DNA of 64,000 bases from a virus. The notes beneath the pieces were generated by a model. That model made no database searches. It saw only the letters and a list, made by a program, of their open reading frames with translations, and had not been told where the DNA came from. The DNA lies in IMG/VR virus record IMGVR_UViG_3300027743_000025, positions 1 through 64,000 of that record; one strand, written 5' to 3'. The position numbers and the translations under genes are program-made. Shown here piece by piece: positions 14 to 63,999 of the stretch; positions within the stretch are counted from its first letter, which is position 1, and the number at the start of each line of letters is the position of its first letter.

Positions 14-313
14 GTGAGTGAAGACAACCCGAACGCCGTGGGCGGCTACTGGGAGGACCACAGCAGCCCGACCGAGGGGAAGTGGATCTACACCACGGAG
101 CCATTCGAAGAGATCGCCGTGCTGGATCTTGGCGGTCCCGGTGGTCGCTGGAAGATCATCATGGAAGACTACAACGATGCTCTCCCAGATGCCATACCTC
201 CCATGTCAACCGCTGACCTGAAGCGATTCTCCGAGGGCATCCACTCTCTGGGCTACTACGGCAACATCCAGTGGGCGCGGGATGAGCGCGAGTCCGGAGC
301 CGGTTACATATGA
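14..313 (+). CDS. hypothetical phage protein
   Basis: 99 aa acidic ORF with GTG start and plausible codon usage; no recognisable domain. Confidence 0.6.
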   Translation: MSEDNPNAVGGYWEDHSSPTEGKWIYTTEPFEEIAVLDLGGPGGRWKIIMEDYNDALPDAIPPMSTADLKRFSEGIHSLGYYGNIQWARDERESGAGYI

Positions 314-427
314 GAGAGCCTTGGCTCTGGCTGTGGGCTTATCTGTTCTTCGTCATGCTGCTGGTGCTCACCTCTGCGCTCGAACACCTGCCGTTCCAGC
401 TTTTCCGGTGACCCATGCCACAAAGGG

Positions 428-457
428 TTGGCACTCGTTGACATAGGTTGGTAGTGT
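428..457 (+). promoter_or_regulatory. sigma-70/SigA-type promoter with tandem GTTGGC-N4-GTTGAC repeat
   Basis: TTGGCA-N18-TAGTGT upstream of ORF 497. Confidence 0.6.
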
Positions 458-2059: not shown

Positions 2060-2110
2060 GTGATCTTCACCCCCTCTCAGATCTCTTATCCAGCATACCG
2101 GATACTCAAG

Positions 2111-2139
2111 TTGACGTACGTTGACACGAGAGCTATAGT
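2111..2139 (+). promoter_or_regulatory. sigma-70-type promoter with tandem GTTGAC-N4-GTTGAC
   Basis: TTGACG-N17-TATAGT. Confidence 0.8.
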
Positions 2140-3033: not shown

Positions 3034-3375
3034 ATGCTTAACCGCCTGATGAAGCGCTACGCCGACCTTCGCAAGAAGGAAGACGGCTTCACCCTGATCG
3101 AGCTTCTGATCGTCATCGTCATCTTGGGCGTGCTGGCCGGCGTCGTCGTCTTCGCCGTGTCGGGCATCTCCGACCGTGGGGCAGTGGCCGCTTGCAAGGC
3201 CGAGAAGAAGACAGTCCAGGTAGCTGTTGAGGCGTACTACGCCAAGACCACTCCTGGCGCCTACCCGACCCTGTTTAGCCAGTTGGTCCCCGGTCTGCTG
3301 CACTCCATCCCGGCCGGCCAGGTCGCTACGGACAACCCGGTGACGTTCGCTGACGCAGCCTGCCCCACTCCGTAA
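3034..3375 (+). CDS. type IV pilin (prepilin-type N-terminal cleavage/methylation domain)
   Basis: KKEDG/FTLIELLIVIVILGVLAGVVVF class III signal with E5; C-terminal Cys pair. Confidence 0.92.
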   Translation: MLNRLMKRYADLRKKEDGFTLIELLIVIVILGVLAGVVVFAVSGISDRGAVAACKAEKKTVQVAVEAYYAKTTPGAYPTLFSQLVPGLLHSIPAGQVATDNPVTFADAACPTP

Positions 3376-3451: not shown

Positions 3452-4900
3452 ATGAAGCGTCGTCTAGCTGACGACAGTGGAGCATCACTCATCATCGCCC
3501 TGATCTTTATCGTGGTTGTGGCCGTGGTGATGGGAGCCATCCTCACTCTTGCAGAGGCGAACCTGAGAACCACCTCGGTTGTGAAGGACCGGGCTGACAA
3601 GGATTACGGCGCCGATGGCGCTGCCAAGATCGCGATCAAGCAACTGGAGAATGACCACTACCTCGGAGGCGACTGCCCCGCGATGAGTGTGCAAGCCGGC
3701 TACGCCGTGCAGTGCGAGGTCGACGAGTTCAACTCCAGCATGGGGGACATCAACACTGTCAACCGGCAGGCAACCGCTCTGCTCGCGCTGGCTCCGGCCG
3801 GACAGGGTCTCTACTTCAACATTCAGGGCAACCCAGCTACACAGTCGATCAAGGTCAAGGGTGGGCTGTTCTCGCACTCTGACTTCGTGGTTGATCACGG
3901 ATGGCTGGACTCTCTCGGCCCGGTAACCGCGCGGGGTGACTGCCTGCTGCTTACTGCGCAGGCCAGGCTCACGGCTCCTAAACAGGACTGCAAGATCGGG
4001 ACCGTGGCCAACAAGCTTGGCAAGGACCCGAACTACTCTGTTCCGGCCGTGACCGGGGACGCCACCGTGCAGCCATGCACCAAGACCAAGAAGACGCCCT
4101 ATGTGGTGACGCCCGGAATTCTCGACGCTACCGACATGATCGCACTGAACAAACTGACCTCCAACCACGCCGACTGCCAGGATGTGGTGATCTGGCTCAA
4201 GCCAGGTGCTTACCAGTTCAACTCGGTATGGGAGATCAAGTCTGGCAAGGTGGTTGGTGGAGGCAGCTCCACACCTCCGGACACTGTGGATCCCAACAAG
4301 CAGGGATACTGCCCTGCGCCCATCCCGCTGGAGGGACAGGAAGCTACGTGGACTCCACCGGCTGCTGGCCTCGGAGTGACGATCACGTTCGGCCCATCGG
4401 CGCAGCTATCCATGGTGCCTACACCCTCCAAGATCACACCCTCCATGGAGCTGTGTGGCAACTACGAGAAGAACAAGCCGCCGATCGTGTTCTATGGTCG
4501 AACCGCTGCGCCGGAGACTCTGGCCATCAAGACAGACCCTAACTCAGACTTCCGCCTGTACGTTCAGGGAACCACGTACCTGCCCACATCCGTGATTGAC
4601 CTCCAGCTCAAGAAGGACGTGCTTCCGTTCTTCCGGTCTGGTATCACGGCTTACCGATTCCGCGTGGATGGCTTGGGCAACGCCAGCTCTGTTGAGCCAC
4701 TGGTGGAGACCCCCGACGCTGAAGGCACCAGCAACTCCGGCATGGTGTGGCTGGAAGTGAGGAGCACCGCTGACAACACCGTGCGGCTGCGGGCCAAGGT
4801 GTATTTCTACATGGCCAAGCAGACCGAGGATGAGCCGCCGGTTCCTATTGACCCGCCGAAGTACGCATCCAAGATCGTCAGCTGGGCAAACCAGCGCTAA
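3452..4900 (+). CDS. PilX/TadG-like large minor pilin
   Basis: DDSG/ASLIIALIFIVVVAVVMGAIL prepilin-like N-terminus lacking E5; beta-rich Cys-containing body; C-terminal IVSW. Confidence 0.75.
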   Translation: MKRRLADDSGASLIIALIFIVVVAVVMGAILTLAEANLRTTSVVKDRADKDYGADGAAKIAIKQLENDHYLGGDCPAMSVQAGYAVQCEVDEFNSSMGDINTVNRQATALLALAPAGQGLYFNIQGNPATQSIKVKGGLFSHSDFVVDHGWLDSLGPVTARGDCLLLTAQARLTAPKQDCKIGTVANKLGKDPNYSVPAVTGDATVQPCTKTKKTPYVVTPGILDATDMIALNKLTSNHADCQDVVIWLKPGAYQFNSVWEIKSGKVVGGGSSTPPDTVDPNKQGYCPAPIPLEGQEATWTPPAAGLGVTITFGPSAQLSMVPTPSKITPSMELCGNYEKNKPPIVFYGRTAAPETLAIKTDPNSDFRLYVQGTTYLPTSVIDLQLKKDVLPFFRSGITAYRFRVDGLGNASSVEPLVETPDAEGTSNSGMVWLEVRSTADNTVRLRAKVYFYMAKQTEDEPPVPIDPPKYASKIVSWANQR

Positions 4901-4914
4901 CGGTTGACACAGAC

Positions 4915-4954: not shown

Positions 4955-5641
4955 CTAGAAGCGGTTCGGGAACCTGTTGATGATGCCGAGAGCGATGATG
5001 TCAGCCATCATCCCGGCGGCGTGGCTTTGCGCCATGTCGTAATCCCGGAGGCTGTCGACGTACTTGCCACCCAGCTCGGCCGTAGCCTCATTGATGGTCT
5101 GGCTGAGATGTACCTGCATGTAGTCGCGCATCGCCTGCTGAGGCCAGCGCTGGGGGTCCAAAGAGGACAGGAAGTCAGCGACCTGGTTGCCGTTGACTCT
5201 CCACGCTGAGATCGCTGCCGTGGTGGCCGGCCCGTTGTTGGCCTTCGCTGCAACCAGGATCGCTACGGCTCCGCCGATGTGGCTCTTGAGGAGCGCTGTC
5301 AACCGGGCACCGTTCAGGTCGCCGTAGAACGGCTTGATGCTGTCGCCGATGTCAACCTGATTCTGGAGCAGCCGAGCGGCCGTCGCGTTGAACCGGGAGT
5401 TCGGCTGAGCCTCGGAGAAGTACTCCACAATGGCCATTCGCGTATAGGCCACGTGGTCAAACCACAGCCTGCGCTGCTGCGCGCGGAATGCGAATTGAGC
5501 GCCGACGTTGCCACTAGGGGCGACGGTCACGTAGACGGTAGGTCCGGGGGTTGGATGCTTGGTGGTGATACTGCACGCCGCCGTGCCGCTGAGCGACACA
5601 GCCAGTACTCCAGCCACAAGCAAGGCTGAAATTCTCTTCAT
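4955..5641 (-). CDS. secreted (lipo)protein with His-containing helical repeats
   Basis: lipobox-like TAAC; LWFDHVAYTR, RLLQNQ, LLKSHI motifs recall a family of helical putative metal-binding proteins. Confidence 0.7.
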   Translation of the reverse strand: MKRISALLVAGVLAVSLSGTAACSITTKHPTPGPTVYVTVAPSGNVGAQFAFRAQQRRLWFDHVAYTRMAIVEYFSEAQPNSRFNATAARLLQNQVDIGDSIKPFYGDLNGARLTALLKSHIGGAVAILVAAKANNGPATTAAISAWRVNGNQVADFLSSLDPQRWPQQAMRDYMQVHLSQTINEATAELGGKYVDSLRDYDMAQSHAAGMMADIIALGIINRFPNRF

Positions 5642-5709
5642 GTTCCTGCCCTTTCGTCCGGGTTTCCGGAGCGTATCACGTGGTCTGGGTCACAAAGTAG
5701 CCCCGTTCG

Positions 5710-5738
5710 TTGACACCTGTTGAGAGACGAGCTAGTGT
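5710..5738 (+). promoter_or_regulatory. sigma-70-type leaderless promoter with tandem repeat
   Basis: TTGACA-N17-TAGTGT, ATG 7 nt after the -10. Confidence 0.8.
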
Positions 5739-6475: not shown

Positions 6476-6538
6476 CTAGAGGATCGCGATGAGCAGAACA
6501 ACCAAGATCACAATGAGCACTACACCAAGGATCCACAT
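6476..6538 (-). CDS. 20 aa hydrophobic micropeptide
   Basis: MWILGVVLIVILVVLLIAIL with strong GGGAGGTG RBS. Confidence 0.65.
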   Translation of the reverse strand: MWILGVVLIVILVVLLIAIL

Positions 6539-6552
6539 GTCAACCACCTCCC

Positions 6553-6948
6553 TTACTCAGAGATGATCTCCCCGTCAACGATGTTGTCGTCATCCGGGGC
6601 TGGTGGGGCCGGCTCAGCTGCCGGCCGAGCTGCGATCTGTGTCAACCGGTCCCGCAGGGCCGCGATAGCTCCGTCGTTCTGAGGGCCGCTGTCGTCCTGA
6701 TTCTCCACCGGGGCCGCCAGCCGCACGGCCACATCCACCCGCGCGGGCAGGCCCACCCGGTCCAGGACGGCCGTGGCGGCGTTCACCCTGGCCAAGTCGT
6801 TCCGCCCGTTGACCATCACGTCTGTGAGCGTGTCAACCGAGATGCCAGCTGCGCTGGCCAGGTTCAGCCAGGTCTCTCGCACCAGCGCGACCGCCTCGGA
6901 GAAGTTCGTCGGGCGCTGCTGCGGGACAGGTAGGTTATCGGCCGTCAT
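6553..6948 (-). CDS. hypothetical protein, terminase-small-subunit-like features
   Basis: RVNAATAVLDRVG and C-terminal IVDGEIISE resemble TerS-like phage proteins; ATGA overlap. Confidence 0.55.
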   Translation of the reverse strand: MTADNLPVPQQRPTNFSEAVALVRETWLNLASAAGISVDTLTDVMVNGRNDLARVNAATAVLDRVGLPARVDVAVRLAAPVENQDDSGPQNDGAIAALRDRLTQIAARPAAEPAPPAPDDDNIVDGEIISE

Positions 6949-7166
6949 GGAAACAGCGTACCGCCAGATGGGGGATGGGGTGGCGTGTCCGGTTCGCACC
7001 AATGCTCCACCACTGCTGCTGAGATCTGCTGCCACATCGGGATCAGCTCGTCGTTCACATCTTCAGCTGTCCGGCTGCCGGTTGCCACGACGATGGCGGC
7101 CGTTGCGCACTTCACCGAGTAGGCGTTCAGCAGGGCGAGGAACTCCGCGCGGGTCATGTCAACCAC
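6945..7166 (-). CDS. hypothetical protein
   Basis: coupled to neighbouring ORFs. Confidence 0.6.
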   Translation of the reverse strand: MVDMTRAEFLALLNAYSVKCATAAIVVATGSRTAEDVNDELIPMWQQISAAVVEHWCEPDTPPHPPSGGTLFP

Positions 7167-7414
7167 ACTCCCGTTGGCTTGTCCCCGTGGGCGAGCATCG
7201 CCAGGCCCTGGCCGAGGCAGGCCATGTCAACCGCGCTCATGTACACGCCGGGGTAGTCGTCTGTCACCTCTAACCGCCACACGCCGTCGTCGTACTTGGT
7301 AATCCACCAGAGCACGTCCTCAAGTCCCCCGCGCTGGTCAGCGGCGTGGAAGATGTAGCAGGACCGGTTCAGTTTCGTGGTGTGTTCCCAGTAGGGCGGC
7401 TTCAGCTCGGTCAT
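7154..7414 (-). CDS. hypothetical protein
   Basis: 86 aa ORF, first in leftward unit. Confidence 0.65.
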   Translation of the reverse strand: MTELKPPYWEHTTKLNRSCYIFHAADQRGGLEDVLWWITKYDDGVWRLEVTDDYPGVYMSAVDMACLGQGLAMLAHGDKPTGVWLT

Positions 7415-7448
7415 CCCGAGAGGCTAGCACGCGCGGTCGGGTGTGTGG

Positions 7449-7477
7449 TTGACACCTGTTGAGCTGGTGTGTACAGT
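7449..7477 (+). promoter_or_regulatory. sigma-70-type leaderless promoter with tandem repeat
   Basis: TTGACA-N17-TACAGT-N6-ATG. Confidence 0.8.
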
Positions 7478-8255: not shown

Positions 8256-8485
8256 GCGGGCGGCTTATCAACATCGAGCTGGAGCGCCACTCCATGTGGG
8301 AAAAAGAGGGGGACACGGTCAGCATCTACCGGGATCCGCTGGCCAACTACCCGCGCTACTACGTGCTAGAGCAGTCGTATGGGGATGAGCATTCGATCAT
8401 CACAGACCGGGATCTGGACCCGGCCGGGCTGGAGCGGCTGGCCGCGTACCTACGCGCAGAAGGTTGGGAGAGGTGGCCGCTGTGA
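8252..8485 (+). CDS. hypothetical protein
   Basis: ATGA overlap; C-terminus similar to that of 8019..8255. Confidence 0.7.
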   Translation: MSGRLINIELERHSMWEKEGDTVSIYRDPLANYPRYYVLEQSYGDEHSIITDRDLDPAGLERLAAYLRAEGWERWPL

Positions 8486-8838
8486 GTGCTGGTGCGGGTG
8501 GCAGCTGGGAGCTGCTGCTGGAGGAGAATCTCCGGCTGCGTGGGGAGGTGGCCGAGTGCCATGAGCTGCTGGCCGAATTGGTCGGTGGCCAATTCGACTA
8601 CCGGGTTCTGGTATCCCTTTGCGACCGCGCGGCTATGGTGCTCGGCCGGGCCAGGATCGCGCGGGGCAACACGGTTCCGGCCCCGGCCACGTATGCCGAG
8701 ATGGACGCGCGGCTGGGTGTCAACCGGCCGCGCGGCGGCGCCGTCAACGGGGATGTCGTTGTCAACCAGCCGTCCCCGGACGCGCACGAATGCCCGCAGT
8801 GCCGGGACTACGGCTGGTCCGGGTCGGGGGAACGGTGA
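8482..8838 (+). CDS. hypothetical protein with C-terminal CxxC
   Basis: GTGA overlap. Confidence 0.6.
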   Translation: MSAGAGGSWELLLEENLRLRGEVAECHELLAELVGGQFDYRVLVSLCDRAAMVLGRARIARGNTVPAPATYAEMDARLGVNRPRGGAVNGDVVVNQPSPDAHECPQCRDYGWSGSGER

Positions 8839-9104
8839 GCCGCCGGCCGTCGTTTCCCGGCGCGCGATCTCCGTGGGAGGAGACGGTCATGTACCGCCAC
8901 CCCGTCACGGGGGAGCGCTTCGTCTTCGTGCCGCTCCTCCAGCGGGTGGAGGCGTACACGAAGGGATCTCGTACGTCCTACCTCTGGGTGTTTGTCAACC
9001 ACACGGGGACAGACCCGAATCACCCCCTGGTGTGGCGGGCCGTCTGCGATCTCCTGGCCGGCCGCTATGACGAAAGGCGCGGCGAGCCTAAGATCCAGGC
9101 ATGA
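8835..9104 (+). CDS. hypothetical protein
   Basis: GTGA overlap. Confidence 0.6.
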   Translation: MSRRPSFPGARSPWEETVMYRHPVTGERFVFVPLLQRVEAYTKGSRTSYLWVFVNHTGTDPNHPLVWRAVCDLLAGRYDERRGEPKIQA

Positions 9105-10098: not shown

Positions 10099-10148
10099 CT
10101 CGGGTGGCCCAGCTCACAAAATCCAGGGCCAAGGCTTGGCCCTTTTCG

Positions 10149-50714: not shown

Positions 50715-50715
50715 G

Positions 50716-55808: not shown

Positions 55809-55957
55809 GAGTCTGTTCCCTCCTTCTTTGGGCACACCTCAGTCAATAGCTGAAGAGTTACGCCCGGTTGGGTAGGAAAGGTCACTACCCGGATGGAGGG
55901 TCACTCGATACCCACAGAGTATGACACAGCGATCTGGGTCACAAGCCACACCCACAG

Positions 55958-55986
55958 TTGACAGTGGTTGACCTGCTGTGTATAGT
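55958..55986 (+). promoter_or_regulatory. promoter with tandem GTTGAC-N4-GTTGAC
   Basis: TTGACA-N17-TATAGT. Confidence 0.85.
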
Positions 55987-56027: not shown

Positions 56028-56339
56028 ATGAGTGAGAACAAGATCAACCTAGAGCCCATCCCCACCCAGCTGGACACCAAGCCCCGCCACCGGATCTACT
56101 TCCGCCTCTTCTCCGCTGCCCAGCGTCTCGTCGGCGTGCCCGGCATGTCCCCGGCTCAGCGGATCGAAAACCTTGAGGTCATCCGGGAGAGCCTGCTGGA
56201 TGCACTCGCAATGCTGGAGATCGACATCTCTACCCGCAAGGCTTTGGTTGACATTGAGGCAAACTTCCACACCACTGCGGAGGAGCCCACCCAGACTGTT
56301 GAGGTTGAGGAGACCGATACCCCCGAGTGCCCCGAGTAA
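56028..56339 (+). CDS. hypothetical protein
   Basis: GAGGAG RBS. Confidence 0.75.
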   Translation: MSENKINLEPIPTQLDTKPRHRIYFRLFSAAQRLVGVPGMSPAQRIENLEVIRESLLDALAMLEIDISTRKALVDIEANFHTTAEEPTQTVEVEETDTPECPE

Positions 56340-56426: not shown

Positions 56427-56735
56427 ATGAGACTGAAGTTGCTGTTGGTGGCACTGCCTATACTGCTGCTGGCCAACTGCGCAGCACCGGCTCAGACCTG
56501 GTCTTTCAAGATGCCCAACCTGGTGGGCCAGGATCTGCTTAAGGCCAAGGGTCGGTTGACACAGCTGGGATTCCCCATCGAGAACATCTCGGTATACGCA
56601 GGAGACTCAGTCCACGATCTTGGTGTGGAGTCTCGATGGGTAGTGGAAACACAAGAACCACCGCCCGGGACGGTGGTTCCTGTGTGCGAGGAATGCTACG
56701 TAAGCCTGATCATCATTCCACTGCTGGCGGAGTGA
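56427..56735 (+). CDS. PASTA-domain lipoprotein
   Basis: lipobox LANC; MPNLVGQDL..A...L...GF...VV.TQ.P.PGT.V. Confidence 0.8.
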   Translation: MRLKLLLVALPILLLANCAAPAQTWSFKMPNLVGQDLLKAKGRLTQLGFPIENISVYAGDSVHDLGVESRWVVETQEPPPGTVVPVCEECYVSLIIIPLLAE

Positions 56736-59459
56736 CTACTTGAACGGGGACACGATCTCGTCGTCCTTGAACTTCTTGGCCGCCTTGCTGTACAGGCCAT
56801 TGATCTTAGACTGGATAGTGGCCCGGTCAGCCTGCGGAATGCTGGCCCCGCCCCGTGCACCCTTCAGCGCTGCTGCTGCCGCTGCGAGCCCGGAGTAAAC
56901 GATCTGGAGCTTCCCGTTGACCACGTCAGCGATGGGGAGCTTCCACGATCCCTTGTTGTTCGGGTCAGCTTTGCTGTCGTGGTAGAGGAATCCCTGCGCC
57001 AGCTGCCCCGTGTCATAAGTGCCGTCCGACTTCTTGGCCCTAGCGAACATGCGGTTAGCTGCTGCTGCCCCATCCCACGACCGACCCCTATCAGCAAAAG
57101 GGAGCCCTGAATCACCCCCCGCTGCCGCCGTGACCGGGTGAACCCGGTCGCGCAGCTTCTGGATCCTCAGCTGCTTCGCGGCCTCCCGCGCCCGCTGCAC
57201 AGCCTCCGACGCCGGCTGTTCCACGGGAATGGCCGGCTCAGCCTCAGCCTCTTCTTGCTCGGCCTCCGGTTCGGCCTCCGGGGAAATGATCTCGACTTCG
57301 TCTGTCTCAGGGAGCTGCTCCGGCTCGGCCTCCACTGCTGCCGTTTCAGGCTCCTCCGTGAAGAGAGCCGTCTCCACAGCGGCCAGCCGCTCCAGCACGG
57401 CCGCGTCCGCCGTCATGCTGGCCTTGAGCACCGCGAGGGACCGCGCGCCGGCCGCCACCAGTGCGGTAACCGCGCCACTCGCGACCCTGGCCCGAGCGAT
57501 CGGGAAGCCCGGCACGTTGACCTGGCAGACCGCGACCAGCTCCAGCGAGCCGTTGATGGGCCGCCAGTCCCCCGATGGGGCCGACGCGCGGAGCGAGCGG
57601 ACCTGCTCAGGCTTGATGTCCGGCCGGAGCGCGCCGGCCACCCAGATCCCGAACTTGTCCTCCCCTACCACCACGTCAGCGACCGCGCTGGCCGTGTTGT
57701 CGTAGTGGGCCACGGCGTGCCCAGCGTCCGCATTGAGCGGCGCGTGGCCGCCGGCCAGGGTCAGCTGGCCCACGTTCACGTCCTTGCCGCTGGCCGTGCG
57801 CAGGGTGCCGGTGGTGAAGTAGCTGTAGTTAGACCGGGAGCGCGGCGGCTTGACGCTGCCGGGGAGCCCGATGTGCGCCTGGTGCCAGTCCGCGATGTGG
57901 CCGAAGACTCGGCCGCTGTCGTCGTGGGTCAGCGGTGTCAACCGCTCCAGACCGGGGTTGGCGAACCACTCGTCCGGGGGTGCCACCGGGAACCCGCCGG
58001 CCAGGACGGCGCGCACCAGGCCCACGTCGTCCAGTGCTTCTGTGTAGATGCCGTCCTTCAGCATGTCGACATTCCTTCCGTGATGATCACTCCATGCGCC
58101 GGCCACCAGGGCGGACAGCAGCGCCTGTTCGGTTGACATGGCCGATGCAGCATGGCCCCGGTTCCGGCCTCGGCCCGGCCACTTGCCCAGCACCCTCTTG
58201 TGAAGGTTCGCGCAGTAGCCCTCAGCCCGGCCGGGCATGTACTTGTTGAGCTGGTGGACGCACCGCTTGAAGTCTCCCGGAGCGCCCCACTTGATCTTGG
58301 CAGCACCCTTGCCCTCGGCCCAGTAGCGCCGGAGCTTCTCGGCCCGGGGGTCGGGGGAGACCGCTGCCGTGACCCCGTCTATCTGCGCGATCACGTCAGA
58401 CAGGGCCGGGTCATCCAGCTCTACCAGCGGCGGGGGGTTTACACCCTCCAGCTGCGCCAACAGCTCGGGGTCATCGACCCATGACTTCTGGTCATAGCGC
58501 TGGACTTTCGGCCCCGGCTGGAGCCGGATCAGTGCGATCACCGCGCCGGGGTCCAGGTCATCGACCACAGCGAAGGGGGTCCAGTCTTCCTCGGCCACCG
58601 TGTCAACCGCTGCTGACAGCGGTGAGGCCATCCGGCTGATCCGGGAGCTGATCTTCTCTTGATCAGTCTGCGGGATCTGGAGGCTGGGAAGCAGCTCGGC
58701 AGCAGCAGTGAGGCCAGCCGAGACGATCTGAAGCTCACCGTTGACCACATCAGTGAAAGGAAGGAGCCAGGCCGCCTGCGTCTGCGGGTCCGCGTCAGGA
58801 TCTCGGTAGAGGAATCCCTGGCTGAGCTTGCCCGTGTCGTAGGACCCATCCGTCTTCCTGGCCCGCGAGAACAGCCGGTTGACAGCAGCATCCCCATCCC
58901 ACTTCCGAGCGCGGTCGGCAAACGGAAGGGTGAGGTCGCCGTTCACGGAAGCCAGCAGCGACAGATCCTGGTGCCCGGAATGCCGGAAGGCTGAGGGAGC
59001 CAGCCACGCCTGAGGCGTGTAGCAGCGCAGGGCCAGGCCTTCCGCGCCGGACAGCAGGGCATCCGCGAGGTCCACCGCGTCCGGCATGGTGAGCAGGATC
59101 AGTGGGTCAGAGCCCTCCCAAGGCTCCCAGGCGCCGGCCGCTGTCAGGGTCTCGTAGGATGCCTCTCCCACCCGACGCACCAGCTGCCGATAGAGCATGT
59201 CGTCGGCCGCGTCCGCCGTGGCGTAGAACCCGATATCCTCGCAGTCTGAGTCCGGGCACTCCAGCGTCTCGCGGGCCGGCCGGCTCAGAGCCGAGAGCGC
59301 TGACTCCAGCGTGTCGTCCGCCCACTTCCCGCTGTCACCCCCGGATGCCGAGAGCGCGAGGAGCTGCCACGCGGGCACCTCATGCTGGCTGACTTCGCCG
59401 CGCAGACGCCGGGGAACCGGGTAAGCCTTGTTATATCCACACATGACCAAAGATGTCAT
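56736..59459 (-). CDS. multidomain capsid maturation protease
   Basis: PP.EWF.NP...GRVFGHIA.W...HYDNT...GED..GIWVAG...SGDWR...VNVPGFP; duplicated LPFADR..WDG domain; LRRYW..GKGAAKI.W domain. Confidence 0.8.
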   Translation of the reverse strand: MTSLVMCGYNKAYPVPRRLRGEVSQHEVPAWQLLALSASGGDSGKWADDTLESALSALSRPARETLECPDSDCEDIGFYATADAADDMLYRQLVRRVGEASYETLTAAGAWEPWEGSDPLILLTMPDAVDLADALLSGAEGLALRCYTPQAWLAPSAFRHSGHQDLSLLASVNGDLTLPFADRARKWDGDAAVNRLFSRARKTDGSYDTGKLSQGFLYRDPDADPQTQAAWLLPFTDVVNGELQIVSAGLTAAAELLPSLQIPQTDQEKISSRISRMASPLSAAVDTVAEEDWTPFAVVDDLDPGAVIALIRLQPGPKVQRYDQKSWVDDPELLAQLEGVNPPPLVELDDPALSDVIAQIDGVTAAVSPDPRAEKLRRYWAEGKGAAKIKWGAPGDFKRCVHQLNKYMPGRAEGYCANLHKRVLGKWPGRGRNRGHAASAMSTEQALLSALVAGAWSDHHGRNVDMLKDGIYTEALDDVGLVRAVLAGGFPVAPPDEWFANPGLERLTPLTHDDSGRVFGHIADWHQAHIGLPGSVKPPRSRSNYSYFTTGTLRTASGKDVNVGQLTLAGGHAPLNADAGHAVAHYDNTASAVADVVVGEDKFGIWVAGALRPDIKPEQVRSLRASAPSGDWRPINGSLELVAVCQVNVPGFPIARARVASGAVTALVAAGARSLAVLKASMTADAAVLERLAAVETALFTEEPETAAVEAEPEQLPETDEVEIISPEAEPEAEQEEAEAEPAIPVEQPASEAVQRAREAAKQLRIQKLRDRVHPVTAAAGGDSGLPFADRGRSWDGAAAANRMFARAKKSDGTYDTGQLAQGFLYHDSKADPNNKGSWKLPIADVVNGKLQIVYSGLAAAAAALKGARGGASIPQADRATIQSKINGLYSKAAKKFKDDEIVSPFK

Positions 59460-62143
59460 GATGCCGCCTCCCAGTGTGCCTCTCTCTGCAACTGCGCTAC
59501 CTGGTCATTAGTGAGAATACGCTGATACTTCGCTCTCACTACCGTGTCCTCGAACGTCGTCTGGTCGACGGAGTTGAAGGCTTCATAGAGCGCGGCATGG
59601 TTATCCATAGTTGGCTCTGTCTTACGAACTGCGAACGTCGCGTTAGCCACTGCTTCCCGGACATCATCGAAAGTCTTGAGGCCGGCCTTGAAGGCATACA
59701 ACATCGCGACCACATGATCGGTCCCGGAGGCAGTGCCGAAGACACCAGCAGCAGCAGCCACCGCGCCGGCCGGAGCAGCTGGAGCAACTGGAGGAACTCC
59801 GATGGCACCCGCGCCGGGCATCTCAGCAGAGTGGTCCAGGAGAGTAGCCGGCTTGGTGGTGTTGTCGTAAGATGCCCAGCGGTCCATATAATCGGCGAGA
59901 TCGTTGAAGTTGATGATGTTCTGGGTAGTGTCTCTCACCCTGTTCTTCTCGATGACCCTTGAGGGAACGTAGCGGCCACCAATGGTGTCATCGCTGTTCG
60001 CATCCCGGAGACGGTCAATACCGCGCCGGTGACGCTCTTGCACCCTCTTCAGGGAAACATCGATAGGAACGTCTACGAAAACTCCATCCACCGCGTAGCC
60101 CAGCTTCCTGAGATCGTCCACATTGACCGGTGGAGGATCACCGCCCATGGTGCCATCGAAGATGACGTTGTAGCCCTCAGCGATCAGTCGAGACTCAAAC
60201 AGCATGGCTAGCCGACTGGACATCTTATGGATCAGGTCGGCCGTCTCCAGCTCTCCCATACCAGGGATATCTGGTGCGTCTCCCCGCTCTGCGATCCTCT
60301 CCTTGAAAAGGTCTGAGTTGATCTGCACCCAGTCCCTGTCTAGGATCTCCTCTCCGCCTACGGCTTCACTCAGGATGGTTGACTTACCCGCCCCCGGCAG
60401 TCCACCCAGGAGCAAAGACTTCCTACCTTGTGGTTTCGGCTTTCCAGCCTTAGTGACGGTCATCTCCGCATGCAGCTCATCAACGAGCTGCTCAAAGTAC
60501 TCTTCTCGCTCGGTAGACCACTGGCCGTTAGAGTCTCTGAACGCATCTTCGTAAGCCAGTCCAGCTGCTCTAGCGTCTGCCAGGGTGTCATCCAGCCACT
60601 TCACATGTGCCTGGTATTCCGCATCAGTGAGCGGAGGCTGGCCCTTCACATTGACGTTGGGGGCCGGAGGCCGGCTAGCGATGAACTCCTGTAGCTTCTG
60701 GTCGTATTGCTCCAGGGAAAGAGTCGGCCGGTAGTTCGGATCAGCCGCTCTAGCTACGTCGACTTCCTCGATCGCGCTCAAGTTCTCAGTGAGGCTGCGG
60801 GGCAGAGTGGCCAACGACTTTGGAGCCATCATCACCTTGTCGTTGATGTCCCCTACCGGGATCACGTCAGGGAATCCGGCTGCCGGGTCTGCGGGTATTG
60901 CATTCCCATCCCGGTCCACGTAGGAGACATGGGCGCCCTGAGGGGTGAGGTTGGTGATCTGGCCCCGGCGCCGATCAGCCGTGCGGCTGGTGATCGGAGC
61001 GTTCTTGTCTGCGAAGACATTCACCAGGCCGAACTTCTCGATGAACGTGCCGTCCTTACCGCGCGGGTGCAGCCACTCTCTCCAGTTGATAGCCGCGATG
61101 ACTGCCGGATGATCCAGCAACCTGTGCTCACGGGACTGCATCATCAAGGATCCGAAGATTCCAACCGGCTCATCCCCATTGATGCACAGCTGCACGTAGT
61201 GCTTCGCGGCGGCCACGACGGCTGCCGCCGCCGTGGCTTCCTCAAAAGGGAGAGTCATCTCCTCGCTGTCAGAGGCGGGGAACTCCGGCAGTGTCTCGGG
61301 AGCGGTTTTGCCGAGCTGCCATTCCTGCGGGATCTTGTCGAGTGCCCCCAGAGCCTTTGCGCGCTTCACCACATACCACCGGCTGTCGGGGTGGGTGATG
61401 GCATAGCGCACAGCCACCGGAAGATCATCCACCCGGTTGACAGACGGGATGTTCGCTCCAGATGCCACTACCGCTTCCTCCGGTTCGCCTACCGCCGGCT
61501 GTGCTTCTCCCGGCATCTCGATAACCTCGGCTTCTTCGCCAAGCAGCTTGGTCGGCAGATCAGCCACGCTAATGGTCTTTCCGCTGGCATCGCCAGCGTC
61601 CCACACTGCCAGAGCGGATGGGGCCACCTGCACCAGGGACATATCGTCCAGCGTTGTGTTGCCCTCGGGGAGTGCGATCCATTCCCCGTCATACCGCACG
61701 AACGGTCCCATGCCAGTCTCGATAATCAGCGTGACGACTGTGTTGTCCGGAGCCACCACAGCGTCCAGTTGGAGTGCCAACATTCCTCCCCTCAAAATGT
61801 GAGCCTCAACCACGGTTAGCGGCTGCGGTACACCAGCGTCTGGAGCCAGAGTGATTGCATCATATGGGTCAAGTGGCCGGATCCGTATTGTCTCATCCGG
61901 AGCTGCCGGGTCAGAGAAGACAGCTGTCGCTGTCAAGACTCCTCCGCCCTCATCAACAGGTTCAGAGATCACTACTCCACGCAGCTCATCCCCTTCGTCC
62001 CACACAAGCATGAGACCGTTTTCGCCAGTTTGTAGCTCCACGTCGGCACCATAACGAACCGAGGTCGTGTCATACGGCGCTGAAGTGATTGGATCAACTC
62101 TGTGGATGATCACCTCAATGACGGCCGGGTTGGGGGCTAGCAT
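59456..62143 (-). CDS. large head-region protein with zeta-toxin-like P-loop kinase domain
   Basis: LLGGLPGAGKST, INSDLFK, GYNVIFDGT, GGRYVP; HPRGKDGTFIEK motif. Confidence 0.8.
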   Translation of the reverse strand: MLAPNPAVIEVIIHRVDPITSAPYDTTSVRYGADVELQTGENGLMLVWDEGDELRGVVISEPVDEGGGVLTATAVFSDPAAPDETIRIRPLDPYDAITLAPDAGVPQPLTVVEAHILRGGMLALQLDAVVAPDNTVVTLIIETGMGPFVRYDGEWIALPEGNTTLDDMSLVQVAPSALAVWDAGDASGKTISVADLPTKLLGEEAEVIEMPGEAQPAVGEPEEAVVASGANIPSVNRVDDLPVAVRYAITHPDSRWYVVKRAKALGALDKIPQEWQLGKTAPETLPEFPASDSEEMTLPFEEATAAAAVVAAAKHYVQLCINGDEPVGIFGSLMMQSREHRLLDHPAVIAAINWREWLHPRGKDGTFIEKFGLVNVFADKNAPITSRTADRRRGQITNLTPQGAHVSYVDRDGNAIPADPAAGFPDVIPVGDINDKVMMAPKSLATLPRSLTENLSAIEEVDVARAADPNYRPTLSLEQYDQKLQEFIASRPPAPNVNVKGQPPLTDAEYQAHVKWLDDTLADARAAGLAYEDAFRDSNGQWSTEREEYFEQLVDELHAEMTVTKAGKPKPQGRKSLLLGGLPGAGKSTILSEAVGGEEILDRDWVQINSDLFKERIAERGDAPDIPGMGELETADLIHKMSSRLAMLFESRLIAEGYNVIFDGTMGGDPPPVNVDDLRKLGYAVDGVFVDVPIDVSLKRVQERHRRGIDRLRDANSDDTIGGRYVPSRVIEKNRVRDTTQNIINFNDLADYMDRWASYDNTTKPATLLDHSAEMPGAGAIGVPPVAPAAPAGAVAAAAGVFGTASGTDHVVAMLYAFKAGLKTFDDVREAVANATFAVRKTEPTMDNHAALYEAFNSVDQTTFEDTVVRAKYQRILTNDQVAQLQREAHWEAAS

Positions 62144-62145
62144 GG

Positions 62146-63999
62146 CTACACCTCATAGCTTTCCGGGAGATCCAGAATGTTCCGGATGTTCGGTGGCAGG
62201 TAGAGGGGTGGCAGGTCGGAAGGCTTCATAGTCTTGGCTACAGCCATGGTGACGATGTACTTCTCAAGTGGAATGCCATTGATCGACACGATTCCCTTGG
62301 CCTTCAGCTTCGCGATAGCCGAGTCAACTTCCTTCTGGCTGGGAACCGCGATCATGGAGGTCTGTTCAGGACTTAGACCACCGCTAATGTAGTAGTCCTT
62401 CACGTTGCCCCAGTTGAGAATGTTCTTGAAGACGTTCTCTTCCCCGTAAGTGGGGTTGCCGAACACGTCTCCCAGGGAGGCTCGCATGTCCCCGATACGC
62501 CCGTAGACAGCCTCAGGACGGTAGTAGGACATGATGCCGCCGCTGACGTAAGAAGCCTGGTCGTTGTGGTCTGGAAGCCTGGTGTAGCTCTTGGCTGAGG
62601 CATAGGCCCCGTGGCCGGCATACCCGCCAGAGTCGGACTGCGCCGACTTCCCTAGACCCTTCCCAGACGGCGCGTACACGGCTCCGTTAAGTCGCTTGTT
62701 CATGGAGTTGACCTGGCCGTACAGAGCCGCCGAGACGACGGTCTCGGCATCGGCTCTACTGCCACCCTTGACTACCAGGTTCATCTTGCTCTTGGCCTTC
62801 ATGGCAGTGATGGCTCGATCCGACCAGAAGAACGACACCTTGCCAATGGACTCATCCACGCCGACCCGCACGTCCTGCCAGCCAAGGTCAGGGATGCCCA
62901 TCTGATCCCCGGCCAGTTTGAAGATCTGCTCATCAGACAGGCCCTGCGTGTTCTCCACATCAGCCTGGTTCCACTTGACCATAGTGGACAGCATGACCCG
63001 AACCTGCTGCTTAGCTGAGGACTGCGTCATGGGGGAGTAGCCACCCAGGCCCAGCTCAGCCAGCGCGGCAGAGAGGTCTGCATCTGTCGCACCCTCAGGC
63101 AGGGATACCGAGGTCATGCCGTAGCGGGAATCGTTCTTGTAGGAACCAGACGGCTCCACCACTTCAATAACAACCCCGTTACTAGCGACCAGGCGCACAT
63201 TGGTGGAGGAACCGAAGTCGCTGAATGCACTCTTGTGAGCCGGCACCGCCTGTCCCGGCTCTACATCCAGTGTCCCGTCCGCGTGCATGGCCGAGAGTCC
63301 GCCGTCATGAGCGATGGTCCAGCCCTTATCCTTGGCCGTTTGGCTCAAGGTGAACTGCCCCGGGCTCAGCACCTTGATCTTGGTGGGATCCCACGTGTTT
63401 ACCGTATAGGTGTGCCCGGATGCCCATGGGGTGGTGACGACATCAGTGCTTCCCAGGCTCTTGAAGGTGACCTTCTTGTTTCCATCCGGCGTGTCCTCGA
63501 CAGCGACCACCTCGAAGTTCGGGGGGTTGCCAGAGTTGTCCGGCCGCCAGGCGCCCTGATTCTCCGGCTTGCTGCTGGCAGACGGCTTAAGAGCGACACG
63601 CTCGCCCACCGCGATGTCTCCGGTGAGCTTCTTGCTGCGTACCCAGTCGCCCTGTTCCTCCATGGCTCCGGTGGCCAGGTTGCTCGCCAGCGTCGCGCGC
63701 TGCTCCTTGGTCAAAGAGAAGATCACCCGGTTGTACTTCTTGCCGGATGGGCCGACTGCGCGGACCGTGACCATCTCGCCGTTCCGGATGCCCGGGACGC
63801 TGGTGACGATCGCCCGCCACTTGCCGTCCTGCAAGGTCTTGCCCAGCGCCTCGGCCGGCGTGTCAACCGCCAGCGCCATGCCCTGCGGGACAACTGACGG
63901 AGGCAGCGGAGCCTTATATGGGGTGTACTCCTCCATGTCCAGCCGGAGTGCCGACACAAGCCGCGTCGACTTCTCGCCAGTGGAGGTCAGGACTACCGC
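62146..63999 (-). CDS. large hypothetical virion-region protein (5' end outside window)
   Basis: reading frame is open to the window edge; no domain recognised. Confidence 0.75.
   Translation of the reverse strand, partial: AVVLTSTGEKSTRLVSALRLDMEEYTPYKAPLPPSVVPQGMALAVDTPAEALGKTLQDGKWRAIVTSVPGIRNGEMVTVRAVGPSGKKYNRVIFSLTKEQRATLASNLATGAMEEQGDWVRSKKLTGDIAVGERVALKPSASSKPENQGAWRPDNSGNPPNFEVVAVEDTPDGNKKVTFKSLGSTDVVTTPWASGHTYTVNTWDPTKIKVLSPGQFTLSQTAKDKGWTIAHDGGLSAMHADGTLDVEPGQAVPAHKSAFSDFGSSTNVRLVASNGVVIEVVEPSGSYKNDSRYGMTSVSLPEGATDADLSAALAELGLGGYSPMTQSSAKQQVRVMLSTMVKWNQADVENTQGLSDEQIFKLAGDQMGIPDLGWQDVRVGVDESIGKVSFFWSDRAITAMKAKSKMNLVVKGGSRADAETVVSAALYGQVNSMNKRLNGAVYAPSGKGLGKSAQSDSGGYAGHGAYASAKSYTRLPDHNDQASYVSGGIMSYYRPEAVYGRIGDMRASLGDVFGNPTYGEENVFKNILNWGNVKDYYISGGLSPEQTSMIAVPSQKEVDSAIAKLKAKGIVSINGIPLEKYIVTMAVAKTMKPSDLPPLYLPPNIRNILDLPESYEV

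Follow-up and report, generated by a model that had tools for sequence, protein, structure and literature searches.

Short DNA words that are repeated along a chromosome and read by a dedicated factor have been described in several settings. In Cluster A mycobacteriophages, a repressor binds stoperators and stops transcription polarly throughout a prophage. Stoperators lie in promoters and short intergenic spaces, number "more than twenty" 13-mers in phage L5, and work in one orientation only (PMC9283540, PMC6550527). DNA uptake sequences, as in Neisseria and Haemophilus, are exact short words that in H. influenzae lie mostly inside genes and without orientation bias, and their even spacing has been remarked (PMC1939737). 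They also shape the proteome (PMC2817400), and in Neisseria a minor pilin, ComP, reads the uptake sequence (PMC3868556). Chi is a stop signal for a host nuclease and acts in one orientation. Some lambdoid phages strongly over-represent Chi (PMC3784561). Here we describe a group of uncultured soil and sediment phages, actinophage-like and about 85 kb in size, that carry the same ten-letter word about once every thousand bases, evenly spaced and on either strand, in a pattern that looks like a chromosome-wide tag read by a DNA-binding factor. In contrast to stoperators, 94 of 109 copies lie inside ORFs, and sense and antisense copies are used alike. In contrast to Chi, orientation is irrelevant to spacing. 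The statistics resemble those of uptake sequences, although no cellular genome with a dispersed excess of the word was found among those searched.

A sharp, over-represented word in the phage genome

The window analyzed was a 64,000-base stretch (positions 1 to 64,000) of the 86,173-base IMG/VR virus record IMGVR_UViG_3300027743_000025, hereafter G000. GGTTGACA/TGTCAACC occurs as 90 exact copies in the window (38 on the plus and 52 on the minus strand; 204-63868), against 1.87 +/- 1.33 (largest 6) in 100 dinucleotide-preserving shuffles. The array continues to the end of the record, with 109 copies in all (48 plus, 61 minus), whereas the word read backwards occurs once. Markov expectations of order 1, 2 and 3 are 2.6, 3.4 and 7.1. 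Each of the 24 single-mismatch variants occurs only 0-13 times, and variants at the second G only 1-2 times each, so the word is sharp. The base before it is C (58) or T (40) in 98 of 109 copies, and in high-GC relatives it is followed by C, such that the full word is Y-GGTTGACA(-C). In the high-GC genomes the flanking positions are nearly fixed, with Y in 197 of 204 and C in 159 of 204 copies.

The observation made in the first-pass annotation was confirmed. Its count of roughly 110 copies of GTTGACA/TGTCAAC compares with 114 found, its count of about 90 copies of the full word was correct, and all 24 coordinates that it listed hold a copy within 1 base. Using rough gene calls (128 ORFs, covering 91% of the record), 94 copies lie in ORFs and 15 between them. 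Inside the window the split is 51 sense, 26 antisense and 13 intergenic, and thus the 2:1 ratio of sense to antisense that it gave is right as a count. The reading frames it named are also right, namely xGG-TTG-ACA (R/W-L-T), xxG-GTT-GAC-A (V-D), xTG-TCA-ACC (S-T) and xxT-GTC-AAC-C (V-N), while the frame with TGA and the Cys-Gln-Pro frame are empty. It had proposed that loss of the enrichment under codon-preserving shuffling would refute the observation. Synonymous-codon shuffling within each gene gave 7.9 +/- 2.6 copies (largest 16 of 500) against 94 observed, and did not refute it. A base-calling artefact, which it had also raised, is very unlikely, as the word recurs in separately assembled contigs from different IMG/VR samples, and a contig of a run from another study matches 28267-30163, with three copies, without any difference.

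In the window, sense copies on the plus strand lie at 931-938 and 1030-1037 in ORF 497-1132, 1185-1192 in ORF 1150-1653, 2414-2421 in ORF 2373-2561, 10751-10758 in ORF 10221-10907, 11363-11370 in ORF 11212-11385, 16024-16031 in ORF 15560-16549, 23806-23813 in ORF 23543-23896, 25733-25740 in ORF 25590-25853, 36213-36220 in ORF 35740-36519, 40731-40738 and 40802-40809 in ORF 40438-40998, 56246-56253 in ORF 56028-56339, and 56554-56561 in ORF 56427-56735. Two further plus-strand copies, at 18192-18199 at the end of ORF 17989-18207(+) and at 24773-24780 at the end of ORF 24546-24788(+), each form the -35 box of a dual-box promoter. Sense copies on the minus strand lie at 5297-5304 and 5350-5357 in ORF 4955-5599, 6640-6647 and 6831-6838 in ORF 6553-6999, 7157-7164 and 7225-7232 in ORF 7154-7414, 12360-12367 in ORF 12252-12422, 12861-12868, 14055-14062 and 14832-14839 in the primase/polymerase-like ORF 12619-15282, 19609-19616 in ORF 19298-19681, 19865-19872 in ORF 19782-19919, 21545-21552 in ORF 21474-21740, 22143-22150 in ORF 21985-22263, 26614-26621 in ORF 26519-26827, 28287-28294, 28512-28519 and 29412-29419 in the helicase ORF 27870-29762, and 30616-30623, 31450-31457, 32194-32201 and 32225-32232 in the DNA polymerase ORF 30515-32302. 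Others on this strand lie at 33666-33673 in ORF 33109-33951, 34217-34224 in ORF 33951-34478, 35336-35343 in ORF 34800-35627, 39742-39749 in ORF 39653-40138, 42014-42021 and 43421-43428 in ORF 41874-44069, 45385-45392 and 45761-45768 in ORF 44813-45919, 47170-47177 in ORF 45916-47682, 52204-52211 in ORF 51664-52434, 57936-57943 and 58601-58608 in ORF 56736-59459, and 63861-63868 in the 2745-codon ORF 62146-70383.

Antisense copies on the minus strand, within plus-strand ORFs, lie at 204-211 in ORF 14-313, 2219-2226 in ORF 2170-2376, 3757-3764 in ORF 3452-4900, 8718-8725 and 8760-8767 in ORF 8482-8838, 8993-9000 in ORF 8889-9104, 25097-25104 in ORF 24810-25229, and 37617-37624 in ORF 37535-38074. 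Antisense copies on the plus strand, within minus-strand ORFs, lie at 14569-14576 in ORF 12619-15282, 20165-20172 in ORF 20060-20344, 21005-21012 in ORF 20703-21344, 22898-22905 in ORF 22836-23018, 26043-26050 in ORF 25831-26139, 26379-26386 in ORF 26169-26519, 32570-32577 in ORF 32541-33116, 33160-33167 in ORF 33109-33951, 34340-34347 in ORF 33951-34478, 43029-43036 in ORF 41874-44069, 46437-46444 and 47523-47530 in ORF 45916-47682, 51248-51255 in ORF 51143-51667, 51879-51886 in ORF 51664-52434, 54689-54696 in the major capsid ORF 54165-55808, 58131-58138 and 58877-58884 in ORF 56736-59459, and 61435-61442 in ORF 59456-62143.

Among the intergenic copies, those at 4902-4909 (+), 10944-10951 (+) and 16897-16904 (-) lie directly before a terminator-like hairpin, and that at 16768-16775 (-) lies near one. 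The copy at 7447-7454 (+) is the -35 box of a dual-box promoter, with TACAGT 17 bases on, and those at 18994-19001 (+) and 26858-26865 (-) are promoter-like, with TAAGCT and TAACCT, respectively, 18 bases on. The copies at 12031-12038 (-) and 12046-12053 (-) are the closest pair of the genome (15 bases). Other intergenic copies are at 6538-6545 (-), 18859-18866 (-) and 38857-38864 (-), and a copy at 50714-50721 (-) lies across the junction of ORFs 50502-50714 and 50716-51141.

Selection, spacing and distribution among relatives

Selection acts on the DNA. The word is realized at 59 of 95 synonymously possible sense places and at 35 of 57 antisense places (62% and 61%), and the proteins themselves are bent towards it, as word-compatible peptides number 152 against 85.8 +/- 8.5 after shuffling of the residues. 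The sense bias is therefore not a polarity, which corrects the first-pass annotation. Strand order along six genomes is random (runs test, |z| at most 1), and in relatives spacing is regular only when both strands are pooled, with per-strand coefficients of variation (CVs) that match random relabelling. This argues against a polar stoperator model and against any RNA-level or strand-specific role.

At least nine further viral contigs of the same capsid lineage (GC 61-71%) carry the word, which is unchanged across capsid identities of 43-50% and over this range of GC. In the high-GC ones the spacing is far more even than chance. The CV of the gaps is 0.58, 0.58, 0.49 and 0.53 in the word-bearing relatives G002, G026, G027 and G029, with P of 0.002 for G002 and 0 of 5000 simulations as even for the other three. 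The bearers G030 and L198 have CVs of 0.52 (without a simulation for G030) and 0.49. There are 0-1 gaps under 150 bases where 3-10 are expected, and G029 has 6-8 copies in each full 10-kb bin. Sites are kept between close relatives but turn over between distant ones. In the relative G001, 54 of 81 aligned sites are identical, against 27% of all 8-mers, whereas only 1-3 of 19-31 sites lie at homologous codons in distant bearers.

None of the 401 Actinomycetota genomes, 20 other genomes or 5 cultured phages (four of them capsid relatives) that were examined has such a density. The most in the Actinomycetota is 94 copies of YGGTTGACA in 1.8 Mb (52 per Mb), against 98 in 86 kb here (about 1140 per Mb). 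The 20 other genomes, which gave triple matches, are at or near control level, except for one whose excess was seen as tandem 9-base arrays in the two of its loci that were read. This survey covers a sample of genomes rather than the phage's actual host.

The capsid tree needs only two changes of the trait, and a derived clade of 11 rows lacks it. That clade and an outgroup (G003, G004, G005 and G028) also lack both genes of a two-gene module at 35740-37141, although G005 and G004 are incomplete (35% and 87%), and the link between genes and trait rests on only two independent contrasts on the tree. All 8 word-bearing genomes or fragments that hold this region have both genes. They are adjacent in the 7 whose coordinates were seen, and in G002 they lie 3.6 kb apart. 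Gene 1 (35740-36519, +; 259 aa) has an N-terminal domain of ~80 aa with a weak HicA-like lead, two C2H2 zinc fingers above the Pfam cut-off and a coiled-coil tail. Its N-domain was found in 8 of 8 bearers holding the region and in 0 of 5 contigs without the word, but the fingers are missing in 3 of the 8 (G002, G026 and G030). Gene 2 (36569-37141, +; 190 aa) has a conserved 115-aa N-domain, an acidic linker and a basic tail. The N-domain models at pLDDT 96.5 but matches no solved structure. The best Foldseek E was 0.1, with the DNA-binding domain of T4 MotA and LAGLIDADG enzymes among these hits at probability 0.4, and the best VIA-align Z was 4.2. The domain belongs to a large family (4579 representatives at E up to 0.001), with members in ~90-kb phages of Gram-negative hosts. 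One of these, Touem01, has no over-represented word in its first 50 kb and 2 copies of this one in its whole record. One viral contig with a 61%-identical copy of gene 2 has 0 copies of the word in 14 kb.

Interpretation and alternative readings

Our analysis demonstrates that selection installs the word through synonymous codons and also through amino-acid changes, and that it maintains the number and even spacing of copies, at one per 0.8-1.5 kb whatever the strand, gene or reading frame, but not their places. From this we infer, tentatively, that the word is a docking site on double-stranded DNA for one highly specific DNA-binding factor that must occupy the whole phage chromosome at regular intervals. 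Such a factor would tag phage DNA as distinct from host DNA, which as far as sampled is at least 20-fold poorer in the word, and so organize, protect or regulate it as a unit. In the lineage of G000 the same core, GTTGACA, also serves as the -35 box of the promoters. Binding and the identity of the reader both remain on the inferred side. We consider a phage-encoded reader more likely than a host-encoded one, although a word that stays invariant over such deep divergence would also fit a very conserved host reader. The only candidate that tracks the trait is the gene pair at 35740-36519 and 36569-37141, neither member of which has a demonstrated DNA-binding activity or fold.

The interpretation in the first-pass annotation was thus partly supported. 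A dispersed system over the whole phage chromosome under DNA-level selection holds, as does its remark that the word contains the -35 hexamer, but its list of mechanisms (repressor or nucleoid-like silencing, polymerase or sigma decoy or loading sites, replication or packaging signals, a modification target) is too broad to be confirmed as a whole, and none is shown. Of its candidate proteins, only 35773-36519 lies in the module. The product of 40138-40413 (MarR-like, below the Pfam cut-off) and the primase have relatives only in the closest relative, and 26519-26827 and 10221-10907 also have relatives in a relative that lacks the word.

A possible but unlikely alternative is that the copies are orphan -35 boxes, on which region 4 of the host housekeeping sigma factor docks, either concentrating polymerase on phage DNA as an antenna for the real promoters or draining it from the host. 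All 15 TTGACA-N16-18-TAnnnT sites of G000, and all 15 of G001, have G before the hexamer, so the same heptamer is the working -35 box here. In G027, G029 and G030 every TTGACA is preceded by G (95 of 95, 84 of 84 and 40 of 40). The non-bearing relative G004 also uses TTGACA promoters (8 sites), so the hosts read this hexamer. An invariant word over deep phage divergence fits a very conserved host reader, and sigma region 4 is highly conserved. However, only 5 of 109 copies have a -10-like TAnnnT at 16-18 bases, with about 1 expected, and stable binding of polymerase to a -35 box alone is not established. The dispersed copies need more than the hexamer, given the nearly fixed Y and GG before it and, in the high-GC genomes, C after it, whereas the 10 dual-box promoters found carry A, C or G before GTTGAC. 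Related phages that use TTGACA promoters do without the array, and the trait follows phage lineage.

It is more doubtful that the word is the target of a phage or host enzyme that modifies a base or nicks one strand, with the regularly spaced marks or nicks serving protection, replication or recombination. A sharp, asymmetric word of 9-10 bases without tolerance for mismatches is as typical for enzymes as for binders. Distant homologues of 36569-37141 sit directly before, and overlap, a gene annotated as DNA methylase or restriction enzyme in 2 of 3 phage records inspected, and the phage encodes a GmrSD_C-type nuclease domain at 20703-21344. However, a target for modification alone gives no reason to multiply the site up to about 50-fold (order-1 expectation) and space it evenly. 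No methyltransferase or other modification domain was found in the 48 distinct ORFs scanned, of 128, and the GmrSD_C gene has a relative only in G001. These considerations rest on assembled contigs alone, which reveal neither nicks nor modifications.

A signature set by the host, either an uptake sequence or a Chi-like signal that the phage copies to pass as self, appears less likely still. G000 and G001 encode a type IV pilin-like protein (N_methyl), but the pilin genes have relatives only in G001 and not in the other bearers, and no genome among those surveyed had a dispersed excess. The phage has its own exonuclease, Sak4-like annealing protein and SSB, a situation that in lambdoids goes with absence of Chi (PMC3784561).

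A stoperator-like immunity system is very improbable given the in-gene location and strand-independent spacing described above, and no integrase domain was seen in the ORFs scanned (a minority, so that a temperate life is not excluded), even though the word is asymmetric, holds the complement of the -35 hexamer, occurs both at promoters and dispersed over the genome, and comes from a phage with actinophage kinship. Ten promoters of G000 do carry two GTTGAC boxes 10 bases apart over the -35 box and spacer, as an operator would, but such dual-box promoters are missing from four of the seven bearers counted (0 in G002, G027 and G029, 1 in G030 and 2 in G026). In addition to the three at copies of the full word, dual-box cores of the form GTTGAC-N4-GTTGA, with the related heptamer rather than the full word, lie at 2110-2124 (+), 5709-5723 (+), 10148-10162 (+), 23481-23495 (-), 55957-55971 (+) and, just upstream of ORF 36569-37141, at 36505-36519 (+).

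Frequency, sequence context and selection

The window, the first 64 kb of an 86,173-base IMG/VR virus record (G000, CheckV 100%) with 61% G+C, encodes a helicase, a family A DNA polymerase, a primase/polymerase-like protein, a Sak4-like annealing protein, an SSB and an exonuclease, together with a major capsid protein, a major tail protein, a tape measure and a portal/protease-like protein. The capsid is about 39% identical to those of Arthrobacter, Microbacterium and Gordonia phages, and short stretches of the polymerase gene match Microbacterium phages at about 72%, although no close cultured relative exists in the phage collection searched. Contigs of public runs from freshwater sediment and soil hold this phage or close strains. 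In the head module, a 2745-codon ORF (window 62146 to record 70383, minus strand) has a peptidoglycan-binding domain and a 2'-5' RNA ligase-superfamily domain, and the 895-codon ORF beside it (window 59456-62143, minus strand) has a Zeta-toxin-like kinase domain; long matches to these occur only in word-bearing relatives. An ORF with a GmrSD_C-type (His-Me finger) nuclease domain (window 20703-21344, minus strand) has a relative only in G001, the closest relative of this phage.

The octamer GGTTGACA occurs 90 times in the window, against 1.87 +/- 1.33 in dinucleotide shuffles, and 109 times in the record (48 on the plus and 61 on the minus strand). It is the most frequent 8-mer of the genome, and GTTGACA is the most frequent 7-mer. 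The word is sharp, in that each of its 24 one-base variants occurs only 0-13 times; the commonest interior variant, GGGTGACA, has 12 copies in the record, several of which are reported to form an iteron-like cluster at the end of the primase gene (window 12455-12640). The word extends by one base, as C or T precedes 98 of 109 copies, and in three relatives of 70-71% G+C, 197 of 204 copies are preceded by C or T and 159 of 204 are followed by C. The enrichment described in the first-pass annotation was therefore upheld, and all of the coordinates listed there were found to be right. Its interpretation was only partly supported.

Genes were called with a rough codon-usage caller of our own (128 ORFs, 91% of the record). 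By these calls, 94 copies lie in ORFs, 59 sense and 35 antisense, and 15 lie between ORFs. Two of three frames are used on each strand, whereas the sense frame that would read TGA and the antisense frame that would read Cys-Gln-Pro are empty. Shuffling of synonymous codons within each gene left 7.9 +/- 2.6 copies (largest 16 of 500) against the 94 observed, so that the refuting test named in advance for the enrichment fails to refute it. A compositional or codon artefact was thus rejected by dinucleotide shuffles, by Markov expectations of orders 1-3 and by synonymous shuffles. All places at which the protein sequence would allow the word by synonymous choice were then counted, and the word was found to be realised at 59 of 95 sense places and 35 of 57 antisense places. 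The 2:1 excess of sense copies stated in the first-pass annotation therefore reflects opportunity, not preference. The proteins are adapted too, since word-compatible peptides number 152, against 85.8 +/- 8.5 when the residues of each protein are shuffled. The same holds in four relatives, with 121-151 observed against 76-81 expected and 38-61% realised.

Systematic miscalling of GGTCGACA, raised in the first-pass annotation as a possible artefact, was also rejected. GGTCGACA occurs 0 times, and as only about 3 copies would be expected from base composition, their conversion could not give 109 copies. The word recurs in contigs of other IMG/VR samples, and a contig of a run from another study covers 28267-30163 without a difference, although with only 40 of 1145 variant positions seen, a variant falling within a copy is not excluded.

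Only 5 of 109 copies have TAnnnT 16-18 bases downstream, with about 1 expected (background 1.07% per site). G000 has 15 TTGACA-N16-18-TAnnnT sites, all with G before the hexamer. Ten promoters have a second GTTGA(C/G) box exactly 10 bases after the first (window 2110, 5709, 7448, 10148, 18193, 24774, 36505 and 55957 on the plus strand and 23495 on the minus strand; record 83531). The two boxes lie one helical turn apart over the -35 box and spacer, often with a start codon a few bases after the -10 box, giving a leaderless look. This dual box is a feature of G000 (10) and G001 (7) and is rare or absent in the other bearers (2 in G026, then 1, 0, 0 and 0), and the dispersed array does not depend on it. 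Four intergenic copies of the word (window 4902, 10944, 16768 and 16897) sit directly at G+C-rich hairpins followed by T runs, which are terminator-like.

Distribution, spacing and turnover among relatives

A capsid search followed by a capsid-profile search of IMG/VR gave 24 loci. The word-bearing genomes and fragments are G001 (86.5 kb, 81% nucleotide identity to G000 over 64 kb, collinear but permuted, 102 copies), G002 (38.8-kb fragment, 28 copies), G026 (82.7 kb, 79 copies), G027 (86.5 kb, 66 copies), G029 (89.6 kb, 59 copies), G030 (31.4 kb, 27 copies) and the smaller fragments L001, L012, L157, L158 and L161. A further contig, L198, was found later through another gene and has 21 copies in 20 kb. 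The word is lacking in G003 (3 copies in 65 kb), G004 (3 in 107 kb), G005 (0 in 37 kb), G028 (1 in 85 kb) and nine further loci with 0-1 copies. No replacement word was found in the genomes without it, where the best z is 8.9, against 37-47 for the word in G000 and G027. The frequent words of G028 (the record of locus L159), such as CCGACCGG with 66 copies in the whole record, are clustered (gap CV 1.6-2.5) and look like a collagen-like Gly-Pro-Thr coding repeat, a reading made by inspection only, rather than a dispersed signal.

On a capsid tree of 25 rows, midpoint-rooted for drawing only, the trait needs two changes. The bearers form several deep lineages, whereas one derived, well supported clade of 11 rows lacks the word, as do two long-branched outgroups. 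Five cultured phages also lack it, with 1-22 copies in 92-193 kb; these are four capsid relatives (Mimi, Sixama, Pumpernickel and DSL-LC01) and Touem01, which carries a distant homologue of ORF 36569-37141.

In the relatives with fewer copies the spacing is strikingly even. The CV of gaps is 0.58 in G002, 0.58 in G026, 0.49 in G027 and 0.53 in G029, against about 0.98 for random placement, with P of 0.002 for G002 and 0 of 5000 simulations for the other three. The CV is 0.52 in G030 and 0.49 in L198, the former without simulation. Gaps under 150 bases number 0-1 where 3-10 are expected, and gaps over three times the mean number 0-1 where 1-4 are expected. G029 has 8, 7, 7, 7, 6, 7, 7 and 6 copies in successive 10-kb bins. 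In G000 and G001, which carry about 50% more copies, the CV is 0.89 and 0.85, which is not significant (P 0.13 and 0.065), and density falls from 19 to 8-9 per 10 kb along G000. The regularity belongs to the pooled set, as per-strand CVs (0.54-1.29) are what random relabelling of strands gives, and the order of strands along each of six genomes passes a runs test (|z| at most 1). A copy on either strand therefore serves equally, which points to reading of double-stranded DNA and speaks against strand-specific processes, namely priming, Chi, KOPS, polar roadblocks and RNA signals. Primase recognition or Okazaki priming was rejected on this ground and because the primase gene is not shared among the bearers.

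Between G000 and G001, 54 of 81 aligned sites are identical, against 26.9% of all aligned 8-mers, and lost sites mostly differ at several bases. Against the distant bearers, only 2 of 19, 1 of 26, 3 of 30 and 1 of 31 G000 sites in aligned codons have a copy at the homologous place, where the expectation is 0.2-0.4. Individual sites are thus protected in the short run and replaced in the long run, while the word, its number and its spacing persist across capsid identities of 43-50% and a shift of G+C from 61 to 71%.

Host genomes and candidate readers

In order to ask whether the word is a signature of the host, a genome collection was scanned for three copies within 30 bases of each other. This returned at least 120 scattered stretches, and the five that were read are local tandem repeats. 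Of 20 genomes behind such stretches, 19 are at or near control level. The twentieth, a Chitinophagaceae MAG of 41% GC, has 1332 copies of the same octamer, which in the two loci that were read (L089 and L113; contigs CAVSJA010000008.1 and CAVSJA010000002.1) are inverted pairs of tandem 9-base arrays, (GGTTGACAG)n facing its complement; the likeness to the phage word is probably coincidental. Among 401 Actinomycetota genomes drawn evenly from the phylum, the highest count of YGGTTGACA is 94 in 1.8 Mb (52 per Mb) and most have fewer than 10 per Mb, whereas G000 has 98 in 86 kb, or about 1140 per Mb. These genomes are a sample that did not systematically cover other phyla and need not include the host, so the absence of an excess is not proof. 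The SalI site GTCGAC is completely absent from the records of G027 (86 kb, 71% GC), for which base composition would give roughly 30, and G004 (107 kb), while G000 has 23. This suggests restriction avoidance and different hosts within the group, and hints at hosts with a SalI-type restriction system. SalI comes from Streptomyces.

All ORFs of G000 and of G027 were compared with the other genomes by tblastn. After removal of antisense shadows and a divergent SSB, one gene pair stands out, 35740-36519 and 36569-37141, which is present in all seven bearers compared (G000, G001, G002, G026, G027, G029 and G030) and in none of the four non-bearers (G003, G004, G005 and G028). The two genes are adjacent in the seven genomes whose coordinates were seen, L198 among them, and in G002 they lie 3.6 kb apart. 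The pair, and the N-domain of gene 1 in particular, tracks the trait in 8 of 8 bearers against 0 of 5 contigs without the word, although this rests on few independent contrasts and on no biochemical hint beyond the zinc fingers of gene 1.

Gene 1 (35740-36519) has a conserved N-domain of ~80 residues with the pattern GW(T/H)G...H...PD, for which a protein atlas gives only weak HicA-family leads (score 0.8). In G000, G001, G027, G029 and L198 it is followed by two C2H2 zinc fingers (PF00096, 28.5 bits in G000 against a cut-off of 25.2) and a coiled coil. In G002, G026 and G030 the homologues are bare proteins of 82-83 aa without fingers, so that tandem fingers are not conserved wherever the word is present, and the fingers were rejected as the universal reader.

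Gene 2 (36569-37141) has a 115-residue N-domain with invariant Arg, Asp, Tyr, Lys and Trp residues, an acidic linker and a very basic tail. The N-domain is predicted with a pLDDT of 96.5, but matched nothing solved in PDB by Foldseek or VIA-align, nothing by sequence profile and no Pfam or PHROG family, and its look-alikes in the protein atlas are unnamed. The weak Foldseek rows include the DNA-binding domain of T4 MotA and LAGLIDADG enzymes, at E 0.1-0.2, which we do not count as evidence. A single-protein scan with the partner protein found only its own contig. The family of the N-domain is large and occurs in ~90-kb phages of Pseudomonas, Escherichia, Aeromonas and others, one of which has no frequent word. 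In 2 of 3 records it lies next to a methylase or restriction-like gene. In Pseudomonas phage Touem01 (L184, 19216-21266) and phage Dolphis (L190, 3001-5033), distant homologues of ORF 36569-37141 overlap the start of a 562-codon gene annotated as DNA methylase or restriction enzyme, and lie downstream of a giant ORF, a gene order reminiscent of this phage group. A viral contig with a 61% identical copy of gene 2, but without gene 1, has no copy of the word in 14 kb and no other frequent word, and gene 2 was therefore rejected as a sufficient marker of the trait.

Interpretation and comparison with known signal words

The analysis establishes an exact asymmetric 9-10-mer without orientation, with even coverage, turnover of places, invariance of the word, no host excess in the genomes sampled and a lineage-bound distribution. 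These facts fit a docking word for one very specific reader of double-stranded DNA that must be present at regular intervals along the whole phage chromosome. Binding, the existence and identity of the reader and the role of the occupied array, which could compact, protect, discriminate self from host or silence globally, are inferred. We favor this reading tentatively, and consider a phage-encoded reader more likely than a host one. A more far-reaching version, which remains doubtful, is that of a viral 'self-word', in which a lineage of phages has written an orientation-free ten-letter tag into its own genes at regular intervals of about 1 kb. A dedicated reader, perhaps the module 35740-37141 built on a domain with no matching solved fold, could then tell phage DNA from host DNA (at least a 20-fold contrast in density) and act on the whole chromosome at once. 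It would be the phage counterpart of uptake sequences and Chi, but encoded and read by the virus itself.

Genome-wide signal words, such as uptake sequences, Chi, KOPS and stoperators, have each revealed a machine that reads DNA as a whole, and we place the array among them. Literature searches for the word itself returned primers and unrelated hits. Searches on over-represented, evenly spaced motifs in phage genomes and on dispersed repeats in actinobacteriophages gave stoperators, Cluster O repeats and Chi in lambdoids but nothing like this, although repeat tables in the supplements of actinophage papers could hold a similar word that was not seen. What these searches did not find described in a virus is the combination of about 60-110 exact copies, mostly inside genes, forced through both codon choice and amino-acid choice, evenly spaced, blind to strand and stable across phages whose capsids are only 43-50% identical. 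If a phage factor reads the word, this is a new way for a virus to mark its chromosome, and it would also be a compact, orthogonal DNA tag and reader pair; if the reader proves to be viral and the function is self-marking, it would be new in kind. If the host polymerase reads it, it is a new strategy of host take-over. Either way the question becomes testable, with ten bases, a short list of candidate proteins and several natural genomes that differ in density. The array also warns that synonymous recoding or codon optimisation of such phages would erase a selected signal.

The main alternative, which we consider unlikely, is docking of host polymerase through sigma region 4 on orphan -35 boxes. 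TTGACA is inside every copy of the word, and GTTGACA is the -35 box of the promoter-like sites of this genome. However, 104 of 109 copies have no -10 partner 16-18 bases downstream, as a sigma-70-type promoter would, and the flanking Y and GG, and C in the high-GC genomes, are nearly fixed as well. That the word is instead the target of an enzyme is more unlikely still.

A signature set by the host is a remote possibility. By its statistics the array is closest to the DNA uptake sequences of Pasteurellaceae and Neisseriaceae (PMC1939737; PMC2817400), which share an exact short asymmetric word at roughly one per kilobase, mostly inside genes and in several frames, with no orientation bias, a remarked even spacing, a visible effect on protein sequences and turnover of sites while the density is kept. 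Those words fill bacterial chromosomes, with hundreds to thousands of copies throughout the genome of the competent host, and are read outside the cell by the uptake machinery. Here the word fills phage genomes, and none of the 401 Actinomycetota and 20 other genomes sampled has it dispersed. A ComP-like reading, in which a minor pilin of the uptake machinery reads the word, is not favored for the phage's own pilin, as the pilin-like gene is found in G000 and G001 but not in the other bearers. This gene (window 3034-3375, plus strand), which has an N-terminal methylation motif, is followed by a 482-codon ORF without a family (window 3452-4900, plus strand) that is 87.6% identical in DNA to its G001 counterpart, above the 81% average of the two genomes, and both ORFs have relatives only in G001. 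Chi, over-represented in some lambdoid phages, is an octamer that marks DNA as self and is enriched in certain phage genomes (PMC3784561). There the median observed/expected ratio is 2.3, the sites are concentrated between origin and packaging site and the word is the host's own. Chi acts in one orientation. Here the ratio is about 15-40 by Markov orders 3 to 1, copies are spread evenly, there is no host excess in the genomes sampled, and both orientations are used in random order (48 plus, 61 minus), without the skew of a RecBCD-AddAB type signal.

A stoperator-like polar silencer is the least likely of the alternatives, since the array lacks defining features of the Cluster A system. By its carrier and its -35 core the array is closest to the stoperators of Cluster A mycobacteriophages (L5, Bxb1), which are also phage-borne, asymmetric, overlap the -35 hexamer, are used at promoters and are scattered over the whole genome. 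Stoperators, however, are 13-mers, a few dozen per genome, in promoters and short intergenic spaces, predominantly in one orientation relative to transcription and with function lost when reversed (PMC6550527; PMC9283540). The present word is 9-10 bases with 59-109 copies per complete genome, and 86% of copies (94 of 109) lie inside ORFs by our gene calls, free of orientation and evenly spaced. No Cluster A-type repressor, which is monomeric with an HTH and a stoperator domain, was found in searches that did not include a profile of that repressor; the only HTH-like hit, 40138-40413 (MarR_2, 23.5 bits, below the cut-off of 27), has a relative only in G001.
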